Shown here one piece after another: positions 52,151 to 55,697 of a DNA stretch of 64,000 bases. A program made the position numbers and the translations under genes. The notes under the pieces were generated by a model. It made no database searches and had not been told where the DNA came from. It was given only the letters and a program-made list of their open reading frames with translations. Numbering within the stretch: the stretch's first letter is position 1; the number at the start of each line of letters is the position of its first letter. Origin of the DNA: Promethearchaeia archaeon (GTDB lineage Archaea; Asgardarchaeota; Lokiarchaeia; Sigyniarchaeales; SOKP01); NCBI GenBank assembly GCA_029856045.1, contig JAHQWG010000016.1, positions 64,001 to 128,000 on the forward strand, read 5' to 3'.

Positions 52151-52359
52151 AAAAAATTTTTTATTATCTATATTTATTTTAAAATCTTATATAAATAATT
52201 ATATCGTTATTTTTAATTTAATCCATCCTAAATTTATCTGAAATCATATTTACATTTTTTATTTAAAAATAATCTTAAAAGAAAAAAAATAAATAACCAT
52301 TTCCTTATTAGAATTATATTAGTCATAAAAAAAGTTTAAATTTGTGGACGTGAGAATAA

Positions 52360-52764
52360 ACGCAATTCGGTTCTGACCTAGGATTAGATCAGCGGGTTAT
52401 TGATGAAATTGCCCCTCAAATAACTTTTATCACATCAAATTGTGAAATAGAGGCACTAGCACTTGTAAGCCAAGAAGGATATGTCATAGCTTTCAGTTGT
52501 CTCCCACAATATAAAATGGATGGAGATAGATTTGGAGGTCTAAGTTCGGCAATTCTAATGACAGCGAGGAGCGCAATGAACTCACTTTTTGGAGAAAATA
52601 TTAATGAAATAATTGTAAGAGGAGATACAGGTTATTTTATTGTATCAAATGCCGGTCGTTTCGTTTTAGTTGGAGCAGGAACTATTATTCAAACAATGAT
52701 GAAAACAGTGAAGGTATTTAGAATCGCCGCAAATAAAATCAGAGAAATTCTAAGCAGAGTCTAA
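52360..52764 (+). CDS. Roadblock/LC7 domain protein (apparent ACG start)
   Basis: IEALALVSQEGYVIA lies upstream of track ATG 52516, followed by helix and EIIVRGDTGYFIV. The frame is closed by TAA at 52357-59. Confidence 0.85.
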   Translation, partial: TQFGSDLGLDQRVIDEIAPQITFITSNCEIEALALVSQEGYVIAFSCLPQYKMDGDRFGGLSSAILMTARSAMNSLFGENINEIIVRGDTGYFIVSNAGRFVLVGAGTIIQTMMKTVKVFRIAANKIREILSRV

Positions 52765-52857
52765 TATTCTAATTTTGTTTTAAAAAAAAAGATTTATATA
52801 TTTTAAAATATATCACATTTTAATATTGGGAAATTTTAAAAAAATTGGTTAAAAAGC

Positions 52858-52935
52858 TTGAAAATTAAGGAATTTAATTGTAATTTTTTTAATTGTTCAT
52901 GGCGTTGGCAGTGGGCTTGGCGTTGGTGTCGATAA
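52858..52935 (+). promoter_or_regulatory. Trp-rich leader ORF upstream of trpB2 (candidate attenuator peptide)
   Basis: TTG...TAA encodes MKIKEFNCNFFNCSWRWQWAWRWCR*, with 5 TGG codons in alternate positions, about 180 nt upstream of trpB2. Confidence 0.7.
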
Positions 52936-53062
52936 GCCTATTGGCATTGGTCTTTCCTTAATATAATCTTGCAACTTTATTAACTTTTACTTAAATAGTT
53001 TATAATAACTATTTCGCGTCCTAAAACTGCATCATTCTTATTAAGATCTAATAAGAGATGAA

Positions 53063-53079
53063 TCACATCTTAGATGTGA
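53063..53079. promoter_or_regulatory. Perfect inverted repeat, operator-like
   Basis: TCACATCT-T-AGATGTGA, about 40 nt before trpB2. Confidence 0.5.
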
Positions 53080-53115
53080 ATAAATTGTAATATTAAAAAT
53101 AATATTGAAGGAAAA

Positions 53116-54519
53116 TTGAATATGGATTTATTTAATAGCAGAATAATATTGCCAACTAGTGAAATACCAAAAGAATGGATAAATATACTTCCAGATTTAC
53201 CAACTCCAATAACACCACTAGTCAATCCTGCCGATGGTAAACCAGCACCTCCCGAATTAGCAATGAGGATTTTCGCAAAGGAATGTGTTTTACAAGAGGT
53301 ATCACAAGAAAACTCAATTCCAATCCCAAATGATTTAAGAGCAATGTATGCATCTATAGGAAGACCTACACCACTTCATAGAGCATACAGATTGGAAAAA
53401 GAACTTGGAATAGAAGGAGATAATATAAAGATTTTTTATAAAAATGAATCAGTAAGCCCAACTGGTAGCCACAAATTGAATACTGCACTTGCACAAGCAT
53501 ATTTTTGCAAGAAACAAGGTATTACTGAGATGGTGACAGAAACAGGTGCAGGTCAATGGGGTAGTGCTTTAGCTTTAGCATGTAATTTATTTGGGATAAA
53601 ATGTACAGTGTATATGGTTCGAATAAGTTTTTTACAAAAACCAGGAAGAAAAATTTTAATGAGTATTTTTAATGCCAAAGTACATGCTAGTCCATCAGAA
53701 TTCACAGAATCTGGAAGGAGATATTGGGAAAAAGATAATAATCATAATGGAAGTTTAGGACTTGCAATATCTGAAGCGATAGAACATTGTTTAAGGGATG
53801 AATCTATTAGATATTCTTTAGGAAGCGTTGTAAATCACGTGCTTTTACATCAAACAGTAATCGGTCAGGAGGCAAAATCCCAGCTTTCTAAAATAGGAGA
53901 ATATCCTGACATTGTGATTGGTTGTGCTGGAGGTGGATCAAATTTTGCTGGAACCGCCATTCCTTTTATAAGAGAAAAGATAAGGGGTATACACCCCGAA
54001 ACGGAAATGATCGCTGTTGAGCCTAGAGCATGTCCAAGTATGTGTAAAGGAAAGTATATGTGGGATTATGGAGATACGGCAAAGATGGCACCTATTGTGA
54101 AGATGTATACTTTAGGGCATAACTTTATTCCCTCTCCAATTCATGCGGGAGGATTAAGATATCATGGAATGGCACCAATCCTCTCTATTTTATTGAAGAA
54201 TAACGTCATAAAAACAGTTATGCACCATCAAACAGATGTTATTAAAGCGGGAATTTTATTTGCAAAAACAGAAAATATATTACCTGCACCAGAAACATGT
54301 CATGCGATAAAAGAAGCAATAGATCAGGCATTAAAAGCTAAGGAAAATAAAGAGAAAAAAACAATTCTATTTAATTTTAGTGGTCATGGATTTTTTGATT
54401 TGTTAGCTTATAAAGAATATATGGATGGAGCCCTAAAAGATTATGAGATGCCAACGGAAGAAATTGAAAAGGCGTTATCTGCAGAGGATATGCCGAATAT
54501 AGATGAAGCCTTATTTTAA
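53116..54519 (+). CDS. trpB2: Tryptophan synthase beta chain, TrpB2 type
   Basis: IPKEWINI, GRPTPL, SPTGSHKLN (PLP Lys), TETGAGQWG, GGGSN, HAGGLRYHG, PAPE, SGHG. Confidence 0.95.
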   Translation: MNMDLFNSRIILPTSEIPKEWINILPDLPTPITPLVNPADGKPAPPELAMRIFAKECVLQEVSQENSIPIPNDLRAMYASIGRPTPLHRAYRLEKELGIEGDNIKIFYKNESVSPTGSHKLNTALAQAYFCKKQGITEMVTETGAGQWGSALALACNLFGIKCTVYMVRISFLQKPGRKILMSIFNAKVHASPSEFTESGRRYWEKDNNHNGSLGLAISEAIEHCLRDESIRYSLGSVVNHVLLHQTVIGQEAKSQLSKIGEYPDIVIGCAGGGSNFAGTAIPFIREKIRGIHPETEMIAVEPRACPSMCKGKYMWDYGDTAKMAPIVKMYTLGHNFIPSPIHAGGLRYHGMAPILSILLKNNVIKTVMHHQTDVIKAGILFAKTENILPAPETCHAIKEAIDQALKAKENKEKKTILFNFSGHGFFDLLAYKEYMDGALKDYEMPTEEIEKALSAEDMPNIDEALF

Positions 54520-54602: not shown

Positions 54603-55697
54603 TTGTGCATTTTTTTGATAGTTACGTACCTAATATATTTATTTTTACTATTTTTGACATGTGGTACGTTATTTAAACTTTCATTTATTTCATATAAATA
54701 TGATGAAATGATTGCTTTTATTAATAATATTATTACTAGTTCAACATTACTATTCGCAATTATTTCAAGTATTTTGAGATCTATTATTAACCCAAATATT
54801 AATCCAATTTTAATATATCCATTTGATTTCTTTACTATAATATTTATGTTCCCCTTTTTTCTTGCGTTCCATTTATTAATATATAGAGAAAGAAAAAGAA
54901 TGAAAAAAGATACGAATAATTTAACTGAATTACGTGTTGATGCTGAAGGATTGAGAGTATTACCTCTTAAATATGAGATATACAGGAAATTAACTCATTT
55001 AATAGTTATTTGCATTTGCTTTTTCTATTTCATATTTGGAGTATTTACAAAATTTCTTTTAGATAATTTTATTTCCATTCTTCCCGATTTTATTAAGAAT
55101 TTTTTTTCTGGGGCAAATTTAATAATTTTAAATAATGTAGATTTTACTCAATATTTAGTTGTTTTTTTAACCAGTATTTCATTAATGGGACTTTTAACAG
55201 CAGATTATGTGAGAATAATTGCTCCCGAAGATTATCCTTTGAAATCAATTAATCGACTTTTACGACAAAGAGAATTAAAAACTAGAATAGGACCTCATAT
55301 TACAATGGCAGTAGGGACTATTTCAATAGTCCTAATTTTTGGACCTCTATCAAACATTGGTCCGTTAATAGTTAGTCTTTCAATACTTATGTCCTCCGTT
55401 GGTGATAGTTCAGCAAATTTAATAGGAATCACAATAGGATGTCATAAAATAAGAGAGGGAAAAAAGAGTTATGAAGGATTAATTGGTGGGATTTTATTTT
55501 CTTTTTTATCCGGAATTTTCTTTTTAATTTTTCAATTCTTCCCGAACTTTATAAGCCCTCAGAAAATACTTCTTATCTCATTAACAGTTGCTTTAATAAT
55601 TGGGATAATAGATTATCTTGATTTGCCAATTGATGATAATCTTAGTTTCCTAATAACATCTTCAATTATTATATATTTATTATTGCAAAGTTTTTAA
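54603..55697 (+). CDS. Polyprenol/diacylglycerol kinase family (dolichol/phytol kinase-like) membrane protein
   Basis: RKLTHL, GDSSANLIG, KKSYEG, IDDNL. Confidence 0.8.
   Translation: MCIFLIVTYLIYLFLLFLTCGTLFKLSFISYKYDEMIAFINNIITSSTLLFAIISSILRSIINPNINPILIYPFDFFTIIFMFPFFLAFHLLIYRERKRMKKDTNNLTELRVDAEGLRVLPLKYEIYRKLTHLIVICICFFYFIFGVFTKFLLDNFISILPDFIKNFFSGANLIILNNVDFTQYLVVFLTSISLMGLLTADYVRIIAPEDYPLKSINRLLRQRELKTRIGPHITMAVGTISIVLIFGPLSNIGPLIVSLSILMSSVGDSSANLIGITIGCHKIREGKKSYEGLIGGILFSFLSGIFFLIFQFFPNFISPQKILLISLTVALIIGIIDYLDLPIDDNLSFLITSSIIIYLLLQSF

Follow-up and report, generated by a model that had tools for sequence, protein, structure and literature searches.

We show here that a short open frame with alternating Trp codons is conserved directly upstream of trpB2 throughout much of an order of Asgard archaea, and that the same module precedes the trpD-trpC-trpF operon. 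In the absence of any transcript or ribosome data, we consider it quite likely that this module is a tryptophan sensor that is read by the ribosome and controls the downstream gene in cis. Attenuation by leader peptides, familiar from bacterial textbooks, requires that a ribosome translate RNA that is still being made; the characterised control of archaeal trp genes works through repressors. Asgard trp genes are probably subject to bacterial-style sensing of tryptophan by ribosomes, for which a full-text literature search returned no archaeal precedent, neither a Trp leader nor a leader-peptide attenuator. An initial annotation of the window, that is, of the whole 64,000-nt stretch of DNA analysed, had raised the idea of a Trp-codon leader serving as a ribosome-based sensor, and this idea is supported by the conservation at both trpB2 and trpD operons and by the covariation of a hairpin, H1, around the leader stop codon.

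The leader frame in the source genome

The features described in this study are collected in Table 1. The TGG codons of the leader frame stand at 52900, 52906, 52912, 52918 and 52924, in a strict 6-nt period that was also detected as a weak tandem period at 52900-52926, and the start of trpB2 lies 187 nt 3' of the frame. The patch with five TGG in nine codons had been described as a GC-rich island in an AT-rich spacer, and this was confirmed, with a GC fraction of 0.53 at 52900-52959 and of 0.10-0.18 in the flanking spacer. Against the composition of intergenic frames, five Trp in nine codons has a binomial p of about 2e-8. At least five TGG at a 6-nt period are found at one further site in the 3.34-Mb source genome, and its six frames contain about 50 cases of three alternating Trp codons. 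Judged by its frequency in the source genome, the Trp run by itself is rare, yet not decisive. The other five-TGG site (contig 41, 81615-81665, minus strand, locus L002) is made up of an 18-nt tandem repeat and probably lies inside a coding or repeat region.

When all upstream short frames of the source genome were ranked, the leader came sixth, and the scan of these frames revealed no convincing second leader, specific to another amino acid. The first rank was taken by a frame on the minus strand of contig 40, about 100 nt 5' of a gene starting at reverse-strand position 525; one frame of this GC-rich stretch is rich in Trp and another in Val, and the stretch resembles a repeat or an unannotated gene, not a leader.

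All five Trp codons are identical in four species of the source genus, in which six other codons of the frame have changed without a frameshift or stop. The leader of this genus is atypical in its TTG start and in the 14 codons that stand 5' of the run. The TTG start has to be counted against the leader, as does the preceding GGT, which is not kept in the sister species: its first G is an A in three other species of the genus. Going by the position of the TATA-like box, transcription is predicted to start at approximately 52820-52828, without experimental mapping.

Table 1. Features of the trpB2 upstream region and of trpB2 (positions in the window)
Feature	Position	Strand	Remarks
TATA-box-like element of leader promoter	52793-52800	+	65 nt 5' of TTG; prediction only
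GGT, possible Shine-Dalgarno core of leader	52847-52849	+	8 nt 5' of TTG
Hairpin pairing leader start region with sequence up to first Trp codon	52856-52903	+	Predicted; AU-rich counterpart of H0
Leader ORF	52858-52935	+	TTG start, 25 codons, TAA stop, five Trp codons
Five-TGG run alternating with CGT, CAG, GCT, CGT	52900-52926	+	Frame and tandem-period analysis
Hairpin H1	52906-52946	+	Predicted; 5' strand 52906-52922 (Trp codons 2-4 and neighbours), 3' strand 52930-52946 (includes stop codon)
Motif X (CATTGG type), duplicated in source genus	52940-52953	+	Conserved post-hairpin motif
Pyrimidine/T-rich stretch, candidate termination signal	52951-52989	+	Includes closing-helix 5' strand 52955-52981
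Domain II closing helix	52955-52981 with 53079-53112	+	Predicted fold
Hairpin HA	52993-53014	+	8-bp arms 52993-53000 and 53007-53014
Hairpin H2	53032-53061	+	Predicted fold; genus-specific version of most conserved domain II element
Hairpin H3	53064-53078	+	6-bp stem
Shine-Dalgarno-like AAGGA of trpB2	53108-53112	+	53109-53112 paired with 52955-52958 in predicted fold
trpB2, stand-alone tryptophan synthase beta-type enzyme	53122-54519	+	465 aa; PALP, E 1e-39

Conservation of the leader upstream of trpB2 and trpD

Orthologues of trpB2 are present in 130 of the 154 genomes of the source organism's order, and 128 upstream regions were collected from this order. A short frame in which Trp codons alternate with other codons precedes the gene at 104 of these 128 loci. 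The initial annotation had suggested looking for conservation of the TGG cluster as a check, and Trp codons are indeed kept 5' of trpB2 in most genera of the order, with between two and six alternating Trp codons across the collected loci and two-Trp versions in the sister families. The source family contributed 91 distinct leader sequences, located 170-225 nt 5' of trpB2, and 88 of them have three to five Trp codons.

These sequences have the properties of a translated frame. An ATG start is found in the Trp frame of 83 of the 91 family leaders, as compared with 2 and 10 in the other two sense frames and 29, 15 and 29 in the antisense frames. A Pro-rich frame on the opposite strand, whose conservation in place of that of the Trp codons was to have refuted the proposal, is accordingly not kept. 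Exactly eight codons stand 5' of the first Trp in 64 of the 91 leaders, the stop follows one or two codons past the last Trp in 74, and leader frames with anything from 1 to 15 codons 5' of the run are all in phase. The peptide sequence is not conserved outside the Trp residues: Gln, Pro, Arg, Cys, His, Ala and others occur between them, and Gln, Arg, His, Ala, Ser and others just 5' of the stop. The intervening codons are strongly biased to those beginning with C, for example CAG, CCT and CGT. In nearly all 91 loci a T-rich box resembling a BRE/TATA element lies 50-65 nt 5' of the leader start codon, and a GGT-containing motif is present 7-9 nt 5' of many leader starts and also of trpB2.

The core motif of the run is found about once per genome in the family (125 matches, compared with 8 for a reversed control), and where it is not at trpB2 it is located 5' of a trpD-trpC-trpF operon, which was identified by Pfam as anthranilate phosphoribosyltransferase followed by IGPS and PRAI. 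The module is present at 27 of the 33 trpD loci examined in the order; this total includes 21 of 27 further trpD upstream regions, in which a Trp-rich short frame was found, one of them from a species of the source genus. A complete single-contig genome of 6.04 Mb has paralogous modules of about 170 nt upstream of both trpB2 and trpD, consisting of promoter, leader and a long hairpin that begins at the stop codon. A frame rich in codons for the end product, kept before two units of one pathway, is what comparative analysis classically takes as the mark of a leader-peptide sensor. Three of the trpD loci (L160, L162 and L165) carry a 90-aa frame without a Pfam match between the leader module and trpD.

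Outside the order, frames with three or four Trp codons precede trpB2 at 4 of 40 loci, and such versions occur in other Asgard classes; two-Trp cases are near chance level here and were left out of this count. One of the four, in a 1.42-Mb single-contig genome of another class, keeps the hairpin spanning the stop and motif X.

RNA structure of the leader (domain I)

The sequence at 52855-52960 has a predicted folding energy of -29.8 kcal/mol (z -2.8). A pairing of 52913-18 with 52934-39 across the Trp codons and stop had been put forward from the sequence of the window, and it turned out to be the core of the predicted hairpin H1. Across genera, H1 is formed between the last Trp codons and the sequence past the stop, the stop itself lying in the loop or in the 3' strand; the arms differ from genus to genus but are still complementary, with at least six arm pairs. 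In an alignment fitted to a covariance model, five of the six H1 pairs show changes in both partners. In other genera the leader start region also pairs with Trp codons 2-3, in a second helix, H0, whose changes are mostly G.U-compatible. Over the domain I alignment, 87.4% of cells are paired, as against 20-49% when the partners are slid. An alignment fitted to a covariance model leans towards that model, and the slid controls are the fairer comparison.

Because the intervening codons pair in H0 and H1, their bias to C in first position is accounted for, and the Trp run is under constraint both as coding sequence and as a strand of RNA. Past the hairpin, motif X is conserved 11-14 nt beyond the stop across genera. 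Its phase relative to the leader frame varies, being 0, 2 and 1 in 37, 26 and 7 sequences, respectively. The two additional TGG that had been noted after the stop, at 52942 and 52948, are therefore present and in the phase of the leader frame in the source genome, but their in-frame status is a peculiarity of the source genus and is not conserved. A pairing of motif X with the loop of hairpin H2 (see below) was also considered and was rejected, as X varies while the loop is constant.

The U-rich tract and domain II

The T fraction reaches a peak of 0.58, with an A fraction of 0.17, at 30-50 nt past the leader stop over the 91 family loci. A run of T5 or longer is present within 60 nt in 74 of the 91 loci (81%), compared with 64% in windows upstream of the leader, so that the tract is just modestly above the AT-rich background. 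It is weak in the source window, where the T-rich tracts that had been pointed out 3' of the leader were found as T-rich stretches, with no T5 run within 60 nt of the stop. In the largest group, X forms a weak hairpin with a T6 run immediately 3' of it, which is the geometry of an intrinsic terminator. The proposal of termination through oligo-U and aCPSF1 fits the position of the T-rich peak, although such termination has not been shown.

Between the U-rich tract and the trpB2 ribosome-binding site, the loci of the source family contain a covarying RNA of about 150 nt, which we refer to as domain II (examples are loci L050, L055, L160 and L164). A closing helix, formed by the U-tract and an A-rich tract beside the ribosome-binding site, encloses the hairpins HA, H2 and H3, and the domain has an invariant loop and invariant junction bases. 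Neither domain II nor the leader has a match among the T-box and all other Rfam families. A covariance model, R1, was derived from one group; a search of 99 loci with it gave matches at 71, including trpD loci. In the domain II alignment 85.9% of cells are paired, a value that drops to 38-50% when the partners are slid, and both partners change in 31 of 36 pairs; helix 1 of the model covaries in relatives. At the position of HA, the hairpins have unrelated sequences between genera and compensatory changes within one group. One stem pair of H2 switches from A-U to G-C in 10 sequences, and in relatives the H2 motif is confined to the trpB2 and trpD modules. All five of the H3 pairs change on both sides in relatives. 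The domain II region of the source window has a predicted fold of -30.5 kcal/mol (z -3.2); R1 remained below significance on the source genus, and the assignment of domain II rests here on position and fold alone. Domain I and domain II fold independently of each other.

In the seed group, nearly every change that affects one side alone is from A to G opposite U, which gives G.U on the plus strand and C.A mismatches on the other. This pattern points to domain II being an RNA rather than a DNA operator, as far as can be read from sequence alone. In some species the Trp run has been lost and domain II retained, and because of this, part of the control is predicted to be independent of the leader.

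One transcript or two, and what is read

Since the U-tract is one strand of a covarying RNA helix, transcripts would have to start upstream of it, and as the leader box is the sole promoter-like box in that region, the leader and the gene are predicted to share a transcript. This argues, indirectly and without RNA data, that leader and trpB2 are expressed as one unit. The single run labelled as a metatranscriptome yielded one contig of 290 nt, which lies inside trpB2 and is uninformative on the leader either way.

On such a shared transcript, the same sensor might have a translational output, in which translation of the leader would alter the fold of the closing helix, which involves the region at or just 5' of the trpB2 Shine-Dalgarno sequence, in a manner similar to ermC or cat. 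The closing helix of the source window pairs its first bases with the AAGGA element (Table 1), a covarying closing helix of 18 bp in other genera stops immediately at the Shine-Dalgarno sequence, and the small hairpin of motif X overlaps the 5' strand of this helix. However, in most genera the Shine-Dalgarno sequence itself is outside the helix, and partition-function folding of 90 loci gave an accessibility of the ribosome-binding site of 0.413 for the free and 0.421 for the stalled state, that is, no gain. An ermC-like switch was rejected on the ground of this unchanged accessibility, and a translational output of the sensor as such seems to us unlikely.

It could also be argued that there are two units, with the leader transcript ending at the T-rich tract and trpB2 being transcribed from its own promoter within or past domain II; the leader RNA or peptide would then act in trans or have a function of its own. 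AT-rich, TATA-like strings 45-75 nt 5' of trpB2 could provide such a promoter, the conserved trpB2 locus persists in species without the Trp run, and Sinorhizobium is known to have an attenuator RNA and a leader peptide that act in trans (PMC7968998, PMC7298713). Three findings make us regard this arrangement as distinctly improbable: the helices flanking the candidate promoter, as well as the helix between U-tract and A-tract, covary as plus-strand RNA; the module is always directly 5' of a Trp gene on the same strand and nowhere else; and the peptide is not conserved apart from its Trp residues.

The UGG repeats might not be read as codons at all and could instead be the site for a TRAP-like protein activated by Trp, or for T-box-like binding of tRNA-Trp. 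This would be in keeping with their strict 6-nt period, with the bias to a C after each UGG and with the extra UGG past the stop in the source genus. It is very hard to reconcile with an ATG and a stop that flank the run in phase almost everywhere, with the sufficiency of two repeats in the sister families and with a post-stop motif that lacks a constant phase; the C bias, for its part, follows from the pairing in H0 and H1. In addition, a search for the TRAP family (TrpBP, PF02081) gave no match in the source genome and did find the Bacillus control, and there is no T-box or other Rfam match. Lastly, a chance open frame in a GC-rich patch, which the roughly 50 occurrences of three alternating Trp codons might suggest, is refuted by the fact that the run is conserved in more than 100 genomes and in two gene contexts.

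Taken as a whole, a cis-acting Trp sensor that is built on a translated leader frame is in our view the best explanation and a likely one, its coupling to gene expression being inferred.

Proposed mechanism

According to the mechanism that we propose for this cis-acting sensor, a ribosome would linger on the Trp codons of the leader when charged tRNA-Trp is scarce. With the third or a later Trp codon in the A site, its footprint would cover the 5' strand of H1, and stalls at earlier codons would hold open H0, the helix of the leader start region. An unfolded H1 would mean less premature termination at the U-rich tract, and RNA polymerase would read on into trpB2. With ample tryptophan, the ribosome would finish the leader and leave, and the leader would fold (approximately -20 to -30 kcal/mol); H1, perhaps stacked on the X hairpin, would then favour premature termination, which may be of the intrinsic oligo-U type, aided by FttA/aCPSF1, or both, so that most transcripts would end or be poorly expressed. 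Archaeal termination is not known to require hairpins, which counts against the model. The species that lack the Trp run but have kept the rest would fit the loss of a repressing hairpin, not a loss of expression.

That termination at the U-tract is the controlled step is inferred, and we can put it forward only as a possibility in which we have somewhat less than even confidence. FttA/aCPSF1 prefers U-rich nascent RNA (PMC8716108, PMC11616081). A search for alternative structures, another of the checks suggested beforehand, did not bear out a classical switch: constrained folds of 16 representatives contained no mutually exclusive antiterminator, and the freed strand has no alternative partner. 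Given this, and given that the footprint has no effect on the ribosome-binding site at equilibrium, the coupling, if real, would have to be kinetic or dependent on a factor.

More tentatively still, control may be layered, with domain II being a new class of trp-specific cis-regulatory RNA that binds a ligand, tRNA-Trp or a protein and that acts together with the leader through archaeal U-tract/FttA termination; its function is unexplained and we offer this as a rather doubtful extension of the model. Direct functional evidence for the coupling of transcription and translation in archaea is scarce (PMC13681488). If true, such layered control by leader and domain II would be the first functional read-out of this coupling in the closest prokaryotic relatives of eukaryotes. 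A conserved Asgard Trp leader would offer a natural way of reading out coupling, ribosome stalling and U-tract/FttA termination in this lineage, and the module may be testable in culture, since some complete genomes of the order have it, including a single contig of 6.04 Mb. The short frames and the structured RNA, both absent from Rfam, are also a gain for annotation.

Comparison with known regulatory systems

The Asgard module meets most of the criteria by which leader-peptide attenuators are recognized. A short frame lies directly 5' of amino acid biosynthesis genes on the same strand, it shows a conserved enrichment in codons for the end product with variable residues elsewhere, similar leaders stand before different units of one pathway (trpB2 and trpD-trpC-trpF), and a conserved helix contains the regulatory codons and the stop region. 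The criterion of mutually exclusive antiterminator and terminator helices is not met. With trpL of E. coli and Salmonella (RF00513) and its his, leu, thr, ilv and phe relatives, the module has in common the frame with end-product codons, the hairpin over codons and stop, and the U-rich tract. It differs in its archaeal host, in having two to six alternating Trp codons where those of trpL are in tandem, in lacking a 2:3 antiterminator, in that any terminator would be of the archaeal U-tract or FttA type, and, in the source family, in the structured domain of about 150 nt that separates leader and gene. The alternating Trp codons, the archaeal termination signals and the added structured domain are what distinguishes it from bacterial attenuators of the trpL type. 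The Trp_leader model RF00513 gave no match at E values up to 10 in 52300-53600, nor at E values up to 1 in seven related loci.

The simplest reading resembles pyrBI of E. coli, where the folding of a single hairpin depends on whether the ribosome covers its 5' strand, without an antiterminator. In pyrBI a closely following ribosome blocks the terminator hairpin and the signal is the pausing of polymerase at low UTP, whereas here the stalling would be codon-specific. As in the ermC and cat systems, a ribosome stalled on the leader could remodel downstream RNA involving the gene's ribosome-binding site; in those systems, however, the stall results from a drug and the nascent peptide, and folding provides no support for a switch here. 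TnaC is likewise a Trp-related leader peptide that works via the ribosome, at its stop codon or close to it, but what it senses is free Trp, through a defined peptide with Pro at its end, and the operon that it induces is catabolic (PMC8429421). The Asgard leader peptides are variable apart from Trp and precede biosynthetic genes, so that the features of the TnaC type, a peptide with conserved Trp, Asp and C-terminal Pro and a catabolic operon, are not found.

Periodic triplet repeats in a trp leader RNA are also known from the Bacillus subtilis TRAP system, in which TRAP binds 11 GAG/UAG repeats and MtrB is needed (PMC3064811). For TRAP-regulated leaders, 9-11 GAG/UAG repeats would be expected; the repeats described here are UGG, number two to six and lie inside a frame that runs from start to stop. 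Short ORFs rich in Cys codons in mycobacteria are another example of attenuators outside the enterobacteria that are rich in a single amino acid (bioRxiv 10.1101/834739), although these are bacterial, leaderless and specific for Cys.

The trpB2 gene and its neighbours

The gene downstream of the leader had been read as tryptophan synthase beta, and it does encode an enzyme of the TrpB2 type with the PALP fold. Its AAGGA element is replaced by a stronger AGGAG in other species of the genus. TrpB2 is the sole Trp-forming enzyme that we found in the source genome, which is estimated to be 100% complete and in which the TrpA, IGPS, TrpE and TrpD families had no match over the cut-off. Since trpA, trpC, trpD and trpE are missing, the stand-alone trpB2 probably makes tryptophan from salvaged indole, a role that is inferred. 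In genomes without the rest of the pathway, the leaders mark trpB2 as a Trp-regulated and probably indole-salvaging enzyme.

The closest non-archaeal relatives of this TrpB2 are proteins of Bacteroidales with approximately 50% identity (loci L145-L157), a similarity that hints at gene transfer between these groups. A Trp leader is absent upstream of these Bacteroidales genes. A scan of the source genome with aragorn reported just 25 tRNA genes, with tRNA-Trp not among them; the shortfall fits tRNA genes that are rich in introns or split and are missed by standard scans. Downstream of trpB2, a 364-aa frame at 54603-55697 on the plus strand separates it from pyrI and has no Pfam match at E 1e-3; pyrB would be expected beside pyrI. 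Upstream of the leader, a Roadblock/LC7 gene occupies 52345-52764 on the plus strand, and as the match of its ATG-started frame begins at profile position 37, the true start is probably a non-canonical codon further upstream.
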